Position numbers and translations under genes: made by a program. This document shows, one piece after another, positions 10,611 through 15,413 of a DNA stretch of 32,759 bases. Position 1 is the stretch's first letter; every line of letters begins with the position of its first letter. Under the pieces are notes generated by a model. The model did no database searches. It was not told the DNA's origin and saw nothing but the letters and a program-made list of their open reading frames with translations. Origin of the DNA: Patescibacteria group bacterium (GTDB taxonomy: Bacteria > Patescibacteriota > Minisyncoccia > Phycocordibacterales > CAIZLB01); NCBI GenBank assembly GCA_030917685.1, contig JAUPUG010000038.1, positions 1-32,759 on the forward strand. Direction: 5' to 3'.

Positions 10611-11888
10611 ATGCACACCTCCAAAAATATCTTCCTCTGGGCGCTATACGACTTCGCGAACTATCTCATTTAGATTGTCTTATTTTTGTATTTTGCCCAG
10701 TGGATTGTTATTGAAAAAGGTTTGTCTGATCTTGCATTCAATCTTACTTTTACTGTCTCTACAATATTTTTGATCTGTACTGCACCATTTCTTGGGGTGA
10801 TGCTTGATAAAAAAATGAGAAGAATTACGGGGCTACGATGGACGACACTTTCAACTGCCATATTGTATGGAGCCTGTGCATTTTTTGCAGTTTCGGGTTC
10901 TGCTATTCCAGCCCTTATATTTTTTACTCTTGGTATGTTTTCATACCAGCTTACATTTACTTGTTATACACCTCTTATAAATGACATCGCTACACCAGAG
11001 AGACGAGGGCGAATTTCGGGTTATGGAATCGCTGCGAATTACTTCGGGCAATTTGTGGGCCTCTTGTTTGTACTTCCATTTTCAAAAGGAGCTATTAGTT
11101 GGTTTGAATCATCTCCTCGAGTTGAGACACTTTTTCCTGCGGTGATAGCTTTTGTATTGGTGTCTTTGCCTATGCTTATTTGGTTTAAGGAAGATCACAA
11201 AGCGTCACTTGGTGAGACTGGCAAAGAGTCGGGTGGCGAGGCTGTCGGTGCAAATAGTACCGAAATACAATTCGCATCAAGTACAAAAGAATTAATTCAC
11301 AAGACAAAACAATTGTTTGCAGTTCCTGGTGTTGGATTATTTATCCTCGCATATTTCTTTTTCAATGATGCGATTCTGACAGCTTCAAATAATTTTCCAA
11401 TATTCATGCAACAAGTGTGGGGAGTTTCTGATACGACGAAGACTTATATATTACTGGGGATTATTTTAACCTCTGCTATCGGAGGCTTGGTTTCTGGATT
11501 TGTGGCTGATAAGTTCGGACACAAAAGAACTCTATTTTACATTTTGGTGGGCTGGGTGTTCATTTTGCCTTTTGTAGGATTCATTCAAGATTTCACTTTG
11601 TTTGTAGTTGCGACTACAGTGATGGGTTTATGGTTTGGTTCAAACTGGGCAGTGTCACGGTCAGTTATGTCATATCTCACCCCGTCAGGATCCCACAATC
11701 TTGCGTTTTCATATTTTAATCTTATTGAGCGTGCATCATCGCTTGTTGGCCCTATTGTATGGGGACTTGTCGTTACAGGCTTGATATCTATGGGAAGTTA
11801 TCGATACCGGCTAGCTACACTTGCAGTGACCCTATTTATATTGTTGGGTCTTTGGTGTTTGACGAAGGTGAGGAGTGATAGGGTATAA
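10611..11888 (+). pseudogene. MFS transporter (UMF1/Atg22-like) with in-frame TAG at codon 21
   Basis: ATG 10611 reads MHTSKNIFLWALYDFANYLI*IVLFLYFAQW. The WALYDFAN family motif lies upstream of the TAG (10671-10673), in frame with the 10686 ORF. Confidence 0.8.
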
Positions 11889-11914: not shown

Positions 11915-12163
11915 ATGAATTGCGAACAAAATTGCCAAAGTTGTTTAATGCCATTTACTAAAGATAAGGGAGTTAGAGAATCTGACAAGTACTGCAGTCT
12001 TTGTTTTAAAGACGGTAAACTTTGTTATGAAGGAAATAATCTGAAGGAGTTCCAAGATGTTTGTTATAGAAGCATGTTGGCGAATGGAACTAATCCAATA
12101 CTCGCCTGGTTTTATACAAAGATGATTGCGAGGGCACCAAGGTGGAAGAACACTGCAAAGTAG
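11915..12163 (+). CDS. Putative zinc-ribbon protein
   Basis: CQSCLMP...YCSLCFKDG...PRWK pattern. Confidence 0.8.
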   Translation: MNCEQNCQSCLMPFTKDKGVRESDKYCSLCFKDGKLCYEGNNLKEFQDVCYRSMLANGTNPILAWFYTKMIARAPRWKNTAK

Positions 12164-12184
12164 TTTGGACGGCGAGGTAATCTT

Positions 12185-12270
12185 AATGTTATTGAATTCA
12201 ATAACATTTAAATGAGAACAAAGTGTGAGTGTCAACTATCTAAAGTATATACTTCGGATAGTTGACACTC
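12185..12270. repeat. Two adjacent palindromes
   Basis: Perfect 24-bp AATGTTATTGAATTCAATAACATT (12185-12208); 44-bp GAGTGTCAACTATC-ta-AAGTATATACTT-cg-GATAGTTGACACTC (12227-12270). Confidence 0.9.
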
Positions 12271-12356
12271 TACTCACAGAAGGAGAACCTTTGCTATACT
12301 GATTGATGACCAAAACTAATTTGTAGCACTAATTTGCAACCAAACAAAAACTTATA

Positions 12357-12689
12357 ATGAAACACCTTATCCCATCAATTCAAGATCCGCTCGGTTCACA
12401 TATACATGCCAATTCTACAGCGCAGGTTATTGACCTTGCTGAGGAACAAAAACTCGCACGTGAGGTAGAGGGGCTTATTGAACTTCATGATTTTATAAAA
12501 GCTCATCCTGATGCGCCAGTGAAAGATATTGCAAAGTTTATGCCACCTGTTGATGCGCGTGTGGTAAATAAAGCGATACAGGCTCTGGCTATTCGAGACA
12601 AAAATCTCACAGCTGAAGAAAAAGAAGCTATTATACAAAGAGCTCGTTCAATACAGCTTGATCCAAAGGTGAAGAAGTGGGGGAAGTAG
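12357..12689 (+). CDS. Hypothetical protein
   Basis: 110-aa helical ORF; extended -10 TGCTATACT at 12292-12300. Confidence 0.6.
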   Translation: MKHLIPSIQDPLGSHIHANSTAQVIDLAEEQKLAREVEGLIELHDFIKAHPDAPVKDIAKFMPPVDARVVNKAIQALAIRDKNLTAEEKEAIIQRARSIQLDPKVKKWGK

Positions 12690-12720
12690 GTTTTTTTATC
12701 ACACAATCCACACCCATCAC

Positions 12721-12749
12721 TTGCACGTTAGATAGTATCCACGTATATT
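12721..12749 (+). promoter_or_regulatory. Promoter for leader peptide/cysDN
   Basis: TTGCAC-17 bp-TATATT; the leader ATG follows 7 nt later. Confidence 0.7.
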
Positions 12750-12756
12750 GTCATAC

Positions 12757-12831
12757 ATGAATGCAATAGCAAAGACAAAAACAACTGCAACAGTATCTGT
12801 TTGTATGTGTAACTCTAGAACTCATATCTAG
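12757..12831 (+). CDS. Cys/Met leader peptide (24 aa, MNAIAKTKTTATVSVCMCNSRTHI)
   Basis: Consecutive TGT-ATG-TGT codons at 12802-12810 upstream of cysD; the stop codon lies inside the antiterminator arm. Confidence 0.8.
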   Translation: MNAIAKTKTTATVSVCMCNSRTHI

Positions 12832-12909
12832 GGTTAGTCTTGCTATCACCATTTCCTCCACGAGTATTGATATCAGAAACAAGCCCTAGAGATAGGGTTT
12901 GTTTTTTTT
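12811..12909 (+). terminator. Transcription attenuator (protector, antiterminator, terminator)
   Basis: 1:2 AACTCTAGA/TCTAGGGTT; 2:3 TCTAGGGTT/AGCCCTAGA; 3:4 AAACAAGCCCTA-gaga-TAGGGTTTGTTT followed by a T-run. Confidence 0.8.
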
Positions 12910-12976
12910 ATTAATTAACTAATGAAAGAAAGTCGCACCATAAGGACGGTCGTGTGGCTTGATTTCGCAAAATCAC

Positions 12977-13882
12977 ATGACACAGAAACACAATAATCAT
13001 TTAGACCAACTTGAGTCTGAAGCAATATTTATTTTCCGAGAGGCAGTAGAACAGTTTGAGAATCCCGTGCTCCTATTTTCTGGAGGAAAAGATTCAATCA
13101 CGCTTGTTCATCTGGCTCACAAAGCCTTTTACCCAGCCAAGATTCCATTCTCATTACTCCATATAGATACTGGACATAATTTTACAGAGACATTGGATTT
13201 TCGTGATGAGCTTGTAAAAAAGTATGGCGTTGATCTTGAGGTCGGGTATGTACAAGACTTGATAGATAGAGGGGTGGTACAAGAGGAAAAGGGAATTAAT
13301 CCAAGTCGAAACGGCCTCCAGTCCGCGACATTGCTCGAAAAACTTTCACAAAAAAAGTATGACGCTGCATTTGGTGGTGGAAGACGTGATGAAGAAAAAG
13401 CGCGTGCAAAAGAACGATTCTTTTCACATCGAGACGAATTCGGTCAGTGGGATCCAAAGAATCAAAGACCTGAAGTGTGGAATCTGTTTAACGGCAAAAA
13501 AGCACCAGGAGAATCGTTTCGAGTATTTCCTATATCAAACTTGACTGAGACTGATGTGTGGGAGTACATACAACGAGAAAAGATAGATTTACCAAGTTTG
13601 TATTTTGCACATGAGCGTAGTGTGGTTGAACGTGACGGCACCCTGCTCGCAGAATCGTCATACAACACACTGCTTCCAGGTGAATCATATGAGAAGCGAC
13701 GTATTCGATATCGAACACTCGGTTGTGTGACTATAACCGGCGCTGTTGAATCAGATGCTGACACGATAGACAAAGTAATAGAAGAAGTTAGAAGCTCAAA
13801 AGTAACTGAAAGAGGGACGCGGGCAGATGATGCCCGTTCAGAAGTTGCGATGGAAGAACGAAAGAAACAGGGATATTTTTAG
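12977..13882 (+). CDS. cysD: Sulfate adenylyltransferase subunit 2
   Basis: LESEAIFIFRE, LFSGGKDS, HIDTGHNF, GGGRRDEEKARAKER, MEERKKQGYF. ATG 12977 is preferred over TTG 12959. Confidence 0.96.
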   Translation: MTQKHNNHLDQLESEAIFIFREAVEQFENPVLLFSGGKDSITLVHLAHKAFYPAKIPFSLLHIDTGHNFTETLDFRDELVKKYGVDLEVGYVQDLIDRGVVQEEKGINPSRNGLQSATLLEKLSQKKYDAAFGGGRRDEEKARAKERFFSHRDEFGQWDPKNQRPEVWNLFNGKKAPGESFRVFPISNLTETDVWEYIQREKIDLPSLYFAHERSVVERDGTLLAESSYNTLLPGESYEKRRIRYRTLGCVTITGAVESDADTIDKVIEEVRSSKVTERGTRADDARSEVAMEERKKQGYF

Positions 13883-13922: not shown

Positions 13923-15413
13923 ATGAAACAAAAAGAATATATAGAACCTTCGCCAGTTAGGCATACAGGAACGGAGAGTGCCATAGCTGCACAAGCACCG
14001 CATTATAAAAAAACTCACCAAGTAGACCTCTTGCGGTTTATAACAGCAGGTAGTGTAGATGATGGAAAAAGTACACTCATAGGGCGACTGATGTACGATA
14101 CAAAATCAATATTTGAAGATCAGCTTAAAGCAATAGAAGCTTCTAGTAAAAAGCGTGGAGATGCACAAGTAGATCTTGCACTTCTGACCGACGGGCTTAA
14201 AGCTGAGCGTGAACAGGGTATTACTATCGATGTAGCATATAGATATTTTTCTACACCAAATAGAAAATTTATTATGGCAGACACTCCAGGACATATTGAA
14301 TATACACGTAACATGTTCACTGGTGCATCAACTGCTGATGCTGTAATTATTTTAATAGATGCACGACATGGAGTTATTGAGCAAACGCGAAGACATACTT
14401 TTATAGCTACGTTGCTCGGTATTCGTCACATCATCGTTGCTATCAACAAGATGGACTTAGTAGATTTTGATCAAAAAATTTTTGAAAAAATAAAAGAGGA
14501 ATATCAAACTTTGATAGCTTCGACGCTGTCTGGTTCAACGTCAAAAAATAAACACGAACTTCATTTCATTCCAATAAGTGCATTGCGTGGTGATAATGTA
14601 GTAGATATTTCAAAACACACACCATGGTATAAAGGCGATACGATTTTGGAGACTTTAGAAAATGTGGATGTGCATTCAGGTGTAAATGTAAATCAACACT
14701 CGCTGGCAGCAGACGCGAACCCTGTGTCTCTCGGTAGATTTCCAGTGCAGAGAGTAATACGTCCGCAGTCAGCTGAGTTCCCAGATTTTCGAGGTTATGC
14801 AGGGCGGGTCGAGGGTGGAGTATTTCGTCCTGGCGATTCGGTTGTGATATTTCCCTCAGATCAAAAGACGCGAATCGATAAGATATATAAATATAAAAAT
14901 GAGCCCACTGAAGCAGTATCTTCCGATTCGATTGTAATGACTCTAGTGGATGATATTGATATTAGCAGAGGGGATATGATAGTTCAGGATTATTTACAAA
15001 AATCTGCGCGACAACCTATACACCAGATACATCAACCTATACACCAGTATGCATATCAATCTTTGCCTCAAGTAAGTAATGAGCTGAATGTATTAGTGAA
15101 TTGGTTCAGTGCTACCAACTTGCAAATAGATAGGCTGTATATATTGAGACATACAACACTTGAAACAAAAGCAGTTGTGAAGTCAATTGAATACAAAATA
15201 GATATTCAGACACTTACGCCGATACATACCATGGAAAACAGAGTCGGCACCGATATTGATGTAAAAATTGGGAAAAACGATATCGCGCGGATACAAATAA
15301 AAACTGCAAAGCCATTATATTTTGATTTATTTTCTCAAAATAAAGTTACCGGTTCGATATTACTCATTGATTCGTATACAAATGAGACAGTGGCGGCTGG
15401 TGTTGTTGTGTAG
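13923..15413 (+). CDS. cysN: Sulfate adenylyltransferase subunit 1 (GTPase), no APS kinase fusion
   Basis: GSVDDGKSTLIGRL, EREQGITIDVAYRYF, DTPGH, NKMD; ends at TNETVAAGVV. Confidence 0.96.
   Translation: MKQKEYIEPSPVRHTGTESAIAAQAPHYKKTHQVDLLRFITAGSVDDGKSTLIGRLMYDTKSIFEDQLKAIEASSKKRGDAQVDLALLTDGLKAEREQGITIDVAYRYFSTPNRKFIMADTPGHIEYTRNMFTGASTADAVIILIDARHGVIEQTRRHTFIATLLGIRHIIVAINKMDLVDFDQKIFEKIKEEYQTLIASTLSGSTSKNKHELHFIPISALRGDNVVDISKHTPWYKGDTILETLENVDVHSGVNVNQHSLAADANPVSLGRFPVQRVIRPQSAEFPDFRGYAGRVEGGVFRPGDSVVIFPSDQKTRIDKIYKYKNEPTEAVSSDSIVMTLVDDIDISRGDMIVQDYLQKSARQPIHQIHQPIHQYAYQSLPQVSNELNVLVNWFSATNLQIDRLYILRHTTLETKAVVKSIEYKIDIQTLTPIHTMENRVGTDIDVKIGKNDIARIQIKTAKPLYFDLFSQNKVTGSILLIDSYTNETVAAGVVV

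Follow-up and report, generated by a model that had tools for sequence, protein, structure and literature searches.

A putative leader-peptide transcription attenuator with cysteine control codons upstream of cysDN in a Patescibacteria group bacterium and its homologs in the order

Leader-peptide attenuators are classically known from enterobacteria, in which trpL, hisL, pheL, leuL, thrL, and ilvL are the standard examples, and most attenuators carry more control codons than two. Bacteria of the CPR/Patescibacteria are mostly uncultured and, to our knowledge, gene regulation in these organisms is almost unexplored; a literature search retrieved no publication on attenuators in CPR bacteria. 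The trp-type attenuation model is summarised in the introduction of 10.1101/834739. According to this study, the mycobacterial element Ms5788A and its relatives are polycysteine leaderless short ORFs upstream of sulfur-metabolism genes, in which stalling at runs of consecutive Cys codons relieves a repression that acts on translation via occlusion of the Shine-Dalgarno sequence. In the same study, these elements have no terminator and a transcriptional reporter is described as insensitive to cysteine. A comparative genomics study (PMC1262725) predicted, upstream of cysteine-metabolism genes, short ORFs whose Cys codons lie close to the stop codon; it describes no conserved terminator hairpins and suggests that termination depends on Rho. 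The mycobacterial system, which is translational, is the only experimentally studied Cys leader-ORF system found in the literature search. No terminator-based Cys attenuator was found in the literature either, while the supplements of 10.1101/834739 and PMC1262725 may list further Cys leader ORFs; this agrees with a preceding sequence-only reading of the locus described here, according to which no terminator-based Cys leader is known to have been described for a CPR genome.

The window analyzed here is the whole stretch of 32,759 nucleotides of contig JAUPUG010000038.1 from a Patescibacteria group bacterium (GCA_030917685.1; genome label G000). It contains an attenuator-like element directly 5' of the genes cysD and cysN, and all features of this locus are located on the forward (+) strand. 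Judged by its sequence features, its conserved and covarying positions, and the match of control codons to the genes that follow, this element quite probably controls the cysD-cysN operon as a ribosome-mediated (leader-peptide) attenuator of transcription of the trp/his type. While this type is known as such, the predicted terminator-based Cys leader has no match in the searched literature. As in enterobacterial attenuators, a short ORF with cognate codons near its 3' end is combined with overlapping protector, antiterminator, and terminator pairings, with a stop codon at which a finishing ribosome would cover segment 2, and with an intrinsic terminator that ends in a U-tract. Unlike in enterobacterial attenuators, the cysDN leader frame seems to lie at the 5' end of the transcript with no Shine-Dalgarno leader, the system concerns cysteine and cysDN in ultrasmall CPR-type hosts and matches no Rfam leader family, and homology and a common scaffold link the CPR elements across amino acids. 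With the mycobacterial Ms5788A type, the element shares a predicted leaderless short ORF with Cys codons 5' of sulfur-metabolism genes, but it combines an intrinsic terminator with an antiterminator that competes with it, and its only two Cys codons are not adjacent. It is further set apart from polycysteine translational attenuators by a Cys region that pairs locally in the predicted fold and by the presence of the terminator. In contrast to the ORFs of PMC1262725, the terminator and antiterminator of the cysDN element are explicit and covarying.

The element is preceded by a putative promoter (12721-12749) with a -35 hexamer TTGCAC (12721-12726), a spacer of 17 nt, and a -10 hexamer TATATT (12744-12749). 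Between the end of the -10 hexamer at 12749 and the ATG at 12757 are 7 nt (gtcatac), which is the arrangement that the sequence-only reading had claimed and from which the transcript is expected to be leaderless or nearly so. With matches at only 3/6 consensus positions, the -35 hexamer is weak, and for this reason the promoter is absent from the list of a consensus promoter scan. The leader ORF (12757-12831) consists of 24 codons and the stop codon TAG (12829-12831) and reads MNAIAKTKTTATVSVCMCNSRTHI. It is placed at the predicted 5' end of the transcript and is thereby positioned for translation during transcription of the leader.

In the genus, cysD is present in three of ten genomes, all of which have the element at the same place; thus, it is found before cysDN in both other cysDN-bearing genomes (G008 and G009). 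The leader peptide reads MNAIAKTKTTTIASVCMCNSRTHI in G008 and, from the ATG located 6 nt after the -10 hexamer, MQMKAKAKSNMCSCSSRKNI in G009. The same scaffold is found on a metagenome contig (L097) with the leader MTGKAKFNICSSSSRIHI, which contains the codons Cys-Ser-Ser-Ser-Ser. The gene downstream of the L097 leader encodes a serA-like 2-hydroxyacid dehydrogenase, whose two best NCBIfam matches are phosphoglycerate dehydrogenases, both under the curated cut-off. The promoter layout of the cysDN leader is common to G008, G009, and L097, and these sequences also retain the reading frame, the position of the stop codon, and the Cys codon. The N-terminal residues of the leader peptide vary non-synonymously among the relatives.

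The putative control codons TGT-ATG-TGT (Cys-Met-Cys) are found at 12802-12810, so that the claim of a 24-codon ORF with adjacent Cys-Met-Cys codons is borne out, and they are kept in Cys-type leaders. This subtype is represented by four sequences, three of which come from one genus and two of these are nearly identical. A Cys codon nine codons 5' of the stop codon is found in 4/4 of these leaders, either as TGT or as TGC, and a Cys codon seven codons 5' of the stop codon in 3/4. An alignment of the regions upstream of cysD in relatives, which had been suggested as a check, shows conserved Cys codons with a synonymous TGT/TGC change. The Cys codons are located 25 and 19 nt upstream of segment 2 and thus inside the window in which a stalled ribosome would leave this segment free. 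Co-sensing of Met-tRNA had also been proposed. A Met codon is located beside the Cys codons in all three cysDN leaders, which fits this proposal, but it is absent from the one serA-like leader, and the codon pattern is only suggestive of Met co-sensing by the cysDN leader.

Downstream of the control codons, segment 1 (12811-12819) forms the 5' arm of the protector and pairs with 12827-12835 in a hairpin of -10.5 kcal/mol. This protector has 9/9 standard pairs in all four Cys-type sequences, among which two positions are switched from A-U to G-U. Segment 2 (12827-12848) contains the stop codon, can pair with either segment 1 or segment 3, and is the best-conserved block of the attenuator family described below. 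Segment 3 (12868-12890) can pair with segment 2, resulting in the antiterminator (-18.0 kcal/mol), or with segment 4. The region 12827-12890 folds into a single long hairpin of this stability that uses 10/13 nt of the 5' arm of the terminator; antiterminator and terminator share these bases and are thus mutually exclusive. The intrinsic terminator (12877-12912) follows the leader ORF, precedes the first structural gene, and consists of the stem 12877-12888:12893-12904, with 12/12 pairs and -17.2 kcal/mol, and a T-run to 12909; a consensus scan calls it at 12875-12906 plus T's with 14 pairs. Thus, the leader anatomy of the sequence-only reading, consisting of promoter, ORF, three mutually exclusive pairings, and terminator, matches the sequence base for base. 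The whole leader (12757-12915) folds with -48.5 kcal/mol compared to -28.3 ± 3.6 kcal/mol in 200 shuffled sequences (z = -5.58), none of which folds as well.

Folding under ribosome masks, which had likewise been suggested, yielded the predicted switch. The mask was taken to reach 13 nt, counted from the first nucleotide of the A-site codon, an assumption based on ribosome footprint data. In G000, a ribosome stalled at the Cys codons leads to sequestration of 10/13 nt of the terminator 5' arm, versus 0/13 nt with a ribosome at the stop codon. In all 12 curated elements of the family, a stall at the control codons leads to the segment 2:3 hairpin (-17.0 to -28.0 kcal/mol), which ties up 7/9 to 13/16 nt of the terminator 5' arm; with a ribosome at the stop codon, 0 to 6 nt of this arm are paired. 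At equilibrium during a stall at the second Cys codon of the cysDN leader, the terminator state is slightly favored over the antiterminator state (-22.9 versus -20.8 kcal/mol), so that the switch must be kinetic.

For the cysDN leader, we infer the start site, stalling, termination, and cysteine response from these features as follows. Transcription would start at or beside the ATG at 12757, and the leader frame would therefore be translated from a leaderless mRNA. With ample charging of Cys-tRNA, the ribosome would reach the TAG at 12829 and cover segment 2; segments 3 and 4 would then form the terminator, and transcription would end at about 12905-12912. Upon a shortage of Cys-tRNA, the ribosome would stall at 12802-12810 and cover segment 1. 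Segment 2 would then be free to pair with segment 3 before segment 4 exists, no terminator would form, and RNA polymerase would enter cysDN. If no ribosome is on the leader, segments 1 and 2 would pair as the protector, the terminator would form as well, and transcription would stop.

The covariance models R1 and R2, built from these element sequences, were searched in 151 genomes of the order. R1 has matches in eight other genomes, and R2 in 25/151 including G000. The resulting family has a common layout, in which a near-leaderless promoter beside the ATG is followed by a short ORF and then by the antiterminator and terminator pairings; the -10 hexamer is located 6-7 nt 5' of the ATG in 11/12 curated members, as judged by eye. 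In ten cases, the codon run fits the identified downstream gene. Phe/aromatic codons precede a gene for DAHP synthase in six of these (L117, L118, L123, L124, L135, L149), His codons precede hisG (L122) and hisI (L153), Lys codons precede dapA (L125), and Leu codons precede leuA (L144). A second, Leu-rich member is present in the G000 genome itself (C73:4500-4652). Across 12 members, the antiterminator comprises 18 pairs with 93.4% of cells paired and eight pairs changed on both sides; none of 500 shuffles equals the observed pairing or covariation score, and slid controls are 32-52% paired. The terminator helix of these members is 98.5% paired, with three pairs changed on both sides. In L120 and L122, the conserved RNA block is read in different frames, so that its conservation concerns the RNA rather than the encoded peptide. 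Thus, the cysDN element appears to be one member of a homologous family, in which the scaffold is retained and the control codons are swapped per operon.

Several candidates were rejected or doubted during these searches. In 50 genomes of the taxonomic family, R1 has real matches only in G000, G008, and G009. Ten of the weaker R1 matches were read and turned out to be common terminators at gene ends, including one behind a tRNA. The R1 match L121 is false, and L098, which originates from a pattern scan of metagenomes, is a chance match within a coding region. The R2 matches L146, L148 (Ddl encoded 215 nt downstream), and L151 (UvrB encoded 182 nt downstream) are doubtful.

A transcription attenuator could also report general translation capacity, such as the supply of ribosomes and tRNA or stringent conditions, with the Cys codons being incidental or minor. 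In line with this, the cysDN leader has only two sensor Cys codons, which are not adjacent, and the L097 leader has one. Also, masks on Met, Asn, or Ser codons expose segment 2 as well. Furthermore, no cysteine-synthesis genes were found in G000, G008, and G009, which were covered by the sulfur-gene search and are 79%, 91%, and 94% complete. PALP-family enzymes (cysK, cysM, CBS) were detected in 0/3 of these genomes, PAPS_reduct matches beyond cysD, and thus cysH, were not detected in any of them, and an APS kinase match was found in one, where it is a 109-aa open frame of G009. Without detected cysK and cysH, the physiological (end-product) logic is incomplete. The proposed control of sulfate activation is in agreement with the gene order, but it lacks the counterpart of cysK- and cysH-type genes in the three genomes. 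Against a mere report of translation capacity, the share of Cys codons is 0.62% in a set of 322 long ORFs from the G000 genome, so that two Cys in any three-codon window of a 24-codon frame are expected about 0.25% of the time, and yet Cys is found at the same position in all four leaders with synonymous TGT/TGC usage. Moreover, the ten family cases carry runs of the very amino acid that the downstream enzyme serves to produce, and L097 has Ser-Ser instead of Met-Cys before its serA-like gene. Taken together, a general-capacity sensor is unlikely, and an attenuator that responds to Cys-tRNA is preferred.

The region behind the terminator bears on a second alternative, according to which the leader is a separate short transcript for a small protein or RNA with a constitutive terminator, and cysDN is transcribed from a downstream promoter, for example in 12925-12976. 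The first gene, cysD (12977-13882), encodes sulfate adenylyltransferase subunit 2 (Pfam PAPS_reduct, E = 4.2e-42); alternatively, cysD could start with the in-frame TTG at 12959. It is followed by cysN (13923-15413), which encodes the GTPase subunit without a fused APS kinase (Pfam GTP_EFTU, E = 1.4e-45, and GTP-eEF1A_C). Between terminator and cysD, a module of a strain-variable hairpin and a conserved pre-start block is located at 12925-12976. Further copies of this module are found in the genome before gltX, aspS, and other ORFs, and it is a repeated genome motif and not part of the switch. Its recurrence before several unrelated genes is compatible with a separate transcript, and the hairpin module of G000 may harbor a weak promoter or an additional layer of control. 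The consensus promoter scan found no promoter-like site between the terminator (12910) and cysD (12977), so that a separate cysD promoter downstream of the hairpin, which would have spoken against attenuation, did not appear; the same scan missed the leader's own promoter too. The hairpin half of the module is missing in G008 and in related strains from public runs (joints 12908/12917 to 12962), and the distance from the U-tract to the ATG of cysD is only about 25 nt in G008 and about 30 nt in G009, which has no module. In addition, the peptide sequence is not conserved beyond the frame and the control codons, whereas the antiterminator, which overlaps with the terminator, shows both conservation and covariation. 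A separate transcript is therefore very unlikely, and attenuation of cysDN itself remains the preferred reading. A single study provides two metatranscriptome runs in which a contig from a related strain spans the leader, the terminator, and cysD-cysN; these data are assembled contigs with no RNA ends and possibly with DNA in the library, and they are silent on transcription, termination, and read-through.

Rfam searches yielded no match at gathering score and only chance-level matches for positions 12000-13600 of the window (E up to 10), and none at gathering score for ten family loci (E up to 1) except tmRNA and a tRNA gene elsewhere in these loci; the matches at the family elements themselves are likewise chance-level. 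The leader and riboswitch families considered comprise the Trp, His, Leu, Thr, and Phe leaders, the T-box, and the SAM classes. A riboswitch or protein-binding leader that uses a metabolite, a tRNA, or protein antitermination and has only an incidental short ORF would agree with the strong structure of the RNA (z = -5.58) and with blocks conserved at the RNA level, but it is highly improbable in view of the missing Rfam match, T-box and SAM classes included, of the constant spacing between the -10 box and the start codon, and of one scaffold before aro, his, lys, leu, cys, and ser-type genes in which only the codons change, since a single ligand pocket would not serve all these pathways.

The Cys leader is absent at all four other cysD genes that were found among 400 sampled genomes of the order, which counts against the attenuator reading. 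Likewise, the 80 best non-lineage cysD loci, which have 62-69% identity and come from Bacteroidota, Verrucomicrobiota, and others, show no comparable leader. Some short ATG ORF with at least two Cys is present within 400 nt upstream at 14 of these 80 loci; six of the 14 were inspected and lie in or beside the upstream coding sequence, none with a hairpin and T-run. The cysDN pair was probably acquired horizontally, and the attenuator scaffold appears to have been recruited to it in this genus. It is rather likely that one portable cassette has been copied before many operons, reprogrammed by codon exchange, and recruited to the acquired cysDN genes as a terminator-based attenuator that possibly responds to Cys and Met. 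The codon classes of such a cassette would, with similarly restrained confidence, comprise Phe/aromatic, His, Lys, Leu, Thr/Ile, Cys, and Cys+Ser.

If true, a terminator-based Cys version would close the set of amino acids that classical attenuation is known to sense. It also raises the question why sulfate activation is tied to the charging of Cys-tRNA in cells without recognisable cysteine-synthesis genes. A family of attenuators whose codons can be read offers a testable handle on the amino acids that are monitored by such reduced cells, and it may aid the assignment of functions to unknown genes behind these leaders. Finally, it would represent a natural case of a modular, re-programmable RNA switch.

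Upstream of cysD (12977..13882) and cysN (13923..15413), the plus strand carries the -35 hexamer TTGCAC (12721-12726) and, after a 17-nt spacer, the -10 hexamer TATATT (12744-12749). Seven bases past the latter, the ATG at 12757 opens a leader ORF of 24 codons (MNAIAKTKTTATVSVCMCNSRTHI), which ends with the TAG at 12829-12831 and contains the adjacent control codons TGT-ATG-TGT (12802-12810). Three pairings follow. In the protector, segment 1 (12811-12819) faces the beginning of segment 2 (12827-12835) with nine of nine standard pairs and a fold energy of -10.5 kcal/mol; the antiterminator is a single long hairpin of segments 2 and 3 (12827-12890; -18.0 kcal/mol); and the terminator stem joins 12877-12888 to 12893-12904 by 12 of 12 pairs, is followed by T's to 12909 (-17.2 kcal/mol), and is also called by a terminator scan. 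Promoter, spacer, start codon, reading frame, and Cys-Met-Cys codons had been proposed in the sequence-only reading and were all recovered when the sequence was read, and the three pairings that it named proved real by pair counting and folding. The leader RNA folds with -48.5 kcal/mol versus -28.3 +/- 3.6 kcal/mol for shuffled sequences (z = -5.58), and none of 200 shuffles equaled it. Across 322 long ORFs of this genome, 0.62% of codons specify cysteine, and a 24-codon frame would be expected to have two Cys codons in some three-codon stretch with a chance of about 0.25%. The -35 hexamer matches the consensus at three of six positions, and the leader promoter is absent from the list of a consensus promoter scan.

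The effect of a stalled ribosome was calculated by masking everything 5' of a point 13 nt past the first base of the A-site codon, a footprint assumed from ribosome-footprint data, and by folding the transcript as far as the point where the terminator 3' arm begins. When the mask is placed at the control codons, the hairpin of segments 2 and 3 forms in all 12 elements of the family described below (-17.0 to -28.0 kcal/mol) and ties up between 7 of 9 and 13 of 16 nt of the terminator 5' arm. A mask at the stop codon covers segment 2, and the arm then keeps only 0 to 6 paired nt. In the cysDN leader, 10 of 13 nt are paired under the stall mask (-18.8 kcal/mol) and 0 of 13 under the stop mask; the switch predicted from the sequence was thus obtained in every element folded. 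At equilibrium, the full-length RNA with a ribosome stalled at the second Cys codon slightly favors the terminator (-22.9 versus -20.8 kcal/mol for the antiterminator), so that the decision must be kinetic, as it is in the trp attenuator. Formation of the antiterminator before segment 4, the terminator 3' arm, is transcribed would decide the outcome. A metatranscriptome contig from a related strain (two runs of one study) bridges leader, terminator, and cysDN; contigs of this kind can neither show ends nor prove transcription.

The element is found directly 5' of cysD in both other cysDN-bearing genomes of the genus. In G008, whose cysD is 96% identical, a -35/-10 pair lies 7 nt before the ATG of the leader MNAIAKTKTTTIASVCMCNSRTHI, whose N-terminal half differs from that of the source genome G000 at two synonymous and three non-synonymous sites; the Cys codons and stems are unchanged. 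In G009 (cysD 81% identical), TTGATT, 16 nt, TATAGT, and 6 nt precede the ATG of MQMKAKAKSNMCSCSSRKNI. One further true copy, L097, came from a pattern scan of metagenome contigs; its promoter lies 6 nt before the ATG of the leader MTGKAKFNICSSSSRIHI, and the downstream gene encodes a 394-aa 2-hydroxyacid dehydrogenase whose top two NCBIfam matches are phosphoglycerate dehydrogenases, both under the curated cut-off. Alignment of these regions, which the sequence-only reading had suggested for related cysD genes, shows that a Cys codon (TGT or TGC) is kept at position -9 from the stop in all four leaders and at position -7 in three. Column identity of the four RNAs from the Cys codons to the U-tract is 82%; two protector pairs change from A-U to G-U and two terminator pairs from A-U to G-C and from G-U to G-C, each with pairing intact. 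The Cys leader is absent from all four other cysD genes in 400 genomes of the order and from all six loci inspected among the 80 nearest foreign cysD loci, and the Cys subtype, with four sequences and none at the other cysD loci inspected, is narrow.

The scaffold itself is more widespread. A covariance model built from the four Cys-type sequences (R1) found nothing further in 50 genomes of the family, where ten weak matches, when read, were ordinary terminators. Among 151 sampled genomes of the order, it gave matches in eight other genomes at E ≤ 0.001; one of the nine matches read (L121) lies inside a coding sequence and is false. The remaining eight share a layout of a promoter adjoining the ATG, an ORF of 20-30 codons, a long hairpin overlapping a terminator, and a U-tract, with differing codon runs in the short ORF. 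When the first identifiable downstream gene is assigned by NCBIfam, DAHP synthase (aroFGH) follows the runs FNFFFFSFY (L117), YYSFFISFW (L123), and, with a small ORF between, FNFFLW (L124); SFFYFFF (L118) is followed by a DAHP synthase that matches the B. subtilis type below the cut-off; hisG follows GHHH (L122) and dapA follows KKDKK (L125). FTFFFFGF (L119) and THH (L120) precede small ORFs without a family. A second model (R2), built from 12 curated members, matched 25 of the 151 genomes, including G000. Of the 22 further matches read, at least 13 have runs drawn from a single amino-acid class: Phe/aromatic in nine, Leu in two, His in one, and Thr/Ile in one or two. Ten proteins downstream of R2 matches were scanned: four are cognate enzymes (DAHP synthase behind L135 and L149, hisI behind L153, leuA behind L144), two are unrelated (UvrB and Ddl, both behind doubtful matches), and four gave no family.

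Inspection by eye showed that, in 11 of the 12 curated members, 6-7 nt separate a -10-like hexamer from the ATG, and that this hexamer is preceded at 16-17 nt by a -35 containing TTG; at L123 the gap between -10 and ATG is 10 nt. For G009, L117, L118, and L123, the ATG following the -10 was taken as the start over a longer in-frame ORF. The reading frame through the conserved RNA block differs between L120 and L122, which indicates that the block is conserved as RNA and not as peptide. The source genome itself holds a Leu-rich member, MHKVCAQISLLNLNLVLKTGGDFTCAKL (C73:4500-4652), with 28 codons, five Leu within eight of them, an antiterminator-like pairing, and then a terminator; in this region (C73:4455-4660) a -35/-10 pair is present, with 7 nt between its -10 and the ATG. 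The contig breaks off about 90 nt past the element, before any regulated gene. Covarying stems, which the sequence-only reading had suggested looking for, are present: RNAalifold on the 12 antiterminator hairpins gave 18 pairs, eight of them with compensatory changes, and 93.4% of cells are paired by pair count. None of 500 shuffles reached the observed pairing or covariation score, 3 of 500 reached the number of pairs changed on both sides, and slid controls were 32-52% paired. In the terminator helix, 98.5% are paired and three pairs are changed on both sides. Because few and related sequences were compared, these figures speak for the structure but should not be read as probabilities.

Cysteine is the best-supported signal, somewhat less certain than the attenuator mechanism. 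Cys is rare in the genome, keeps its position, shows synonymous change only, and lies 19-25 nt before segment 2, a distance within the range seen for Phe, His, and Lys runs of other members. All three cysDN leaders have a single Met codon beside the Cys codons, its position varying (C-M-C in G000 and G008, M-C-S-C in G009), and the serA-like leader L097 has C-S-S-S-S. These few sequences are suggestive of Cys plus Met for the sulfur operon and Cys plus Ser for a serine-pathway gene. Of the joint sensing of Cys and Met first proposed, the cysteine part is supported by rarity and conserved position, while the methionine part is suggestive on few sequences, and co-sensing of Met appears rather doubtful.

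A point against a simple Cys-charging logic for cysDN is that typical cysteine-synthesis genes were not found. In G000, G008, and G009 (79-94% complete), a PALP-family enzyme of the cysK/cysM type was not found, nor was a PAPS_reduct match besides cysD that could represent a cysH-type gene, and an APS kinase match occurs in G009 only. A tRNA-Cys(GCA) gene is present in the genome. The cysD gene downstream of the element matches PAPS_reduct (E = 4.2e-42), and cysN encodes a GTPase of the EF-Tu type that lacks a fused APS kinase. In all three genomes the operon consists of cysD and cysN alone, and the genes beyond differ. The gene cysD occurs in 3 of 10 genomes of the genus, in none of 51 other sampled relatives, and in 4 of 400 other genomes of the order (49-64% identity). 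Its rarity in the lineage, together with closest outside cysD genes that are 62-69% identical (Bacteroidota, Verrucomicrobiota, and others), suggests, short of proof, horizontal acquisition. The G000 assembly comprises 728,700 bases (79% complete; the window is its contig C25), and the relatives' genomes of 0.4-1.2 Mb fit a CPR-type organism.

In G000, terminator and cysD are separated by a hairpin module of 44-53 nt, which does not overlap the switch; as a repeated unit of about 55 nt it spans 12925-12980 here. Further copies are found at C26:560-629, C18:5929-5975 (minus strand), C62:3767-3811, and C16 near 11560-11640, as a looser variant in C19, and also in genomes G008 and G006. The genes whose start codons the module directly precedes, cysD, gltX, aspS, and other ORFs, are unrelated. 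The module consists of a GC-rich hairpin with a covarying stem and an AGGA-type motif in the loop, followed by a short inverted repeat ending at the ATG. Strains differ in the hairpin half, which some have, some lack, and some carry enlarged by 24 nt; it is missing 5' of cysD in G008 and in related strains of public runs. An in-frame TTG lies at 12959, 12 nt past an AAGGA. The module might supply a ribosome-binding site or an additional control layer, and it could represent a mobile cassette for translation initiation or an unknown kind of cis-regulator. On the other side of the leader lies an ORF of 110 aa without a Pfam family (12357-12689), which has another genomic context in metatranscriptome contigs of the related strain; the loose ends at both its borders show that this neighborhood is not conserved. 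Between this ORF and a minus-strand ORF (11945-12235), a near-perfect inverted repeat of about 44 nt (12227-12270, 18-20-bp arms) gave chance-level miRNA-type Rfam matches only and could be a bidirectional terminator or operator.

The element would work in the manner of the classical trp, his, phe, and leu leader attenuators, all sequence-level features of which it possesses; no Rfam family matched the elements in the window region and ten family loci. Folding, conservation, and covariation, all computational, support the initial trp/his-type reading, and such a mechanism probably operates at cysDN. A mycobacterial polycysteine leaderless ORF regulates translation via Shine-Dalgarno occlusion, a transcriptional reporter there was insensitive to cysteine, and, according to its authors, no uORF-mediated attenuation had previously been described for cysteine (10.1101/834739). 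That system acts on translation, whereas the element at cysDN is a candidate transcription terminator switch. Likewise, another study describes Cys leader peptides 'without obvious terminators' (PMC1262725), in contrast to the explicit terminator present here. Full-text searches of incomplete coverage found no paper on leader-peptide attenuation in Patescibacteria and, among the papers listed, nothing relevant on that of cysDN; the one paper found on attenuators in the candidate phyla radiation is, by title and abstract, a ribosome structure study. This agrees with the earlier remark that no terminator-based Cys leader was known in CPR-type genomes.

Judged by its sequence, the cysDN leader belongs, as a cysteine-type member, to a family of leaderless attenuators in CPR-type bacteria that share one scaffold; a textbook mechanism appears here in a setting and with a specificity undescribed in the literature searched. 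At eight loci of this family (L119, L120, L137, L138, L141, L143, L147, and L155), mostly Phe/aromatic-rich leaders are followed by small ORFs of about 75-135 aa rather than by biosynthetic enzymes, and neither of the two such ORFs scanned matched a family. The codons of these leaders may give a clue to the function of the small ORFs behind them.
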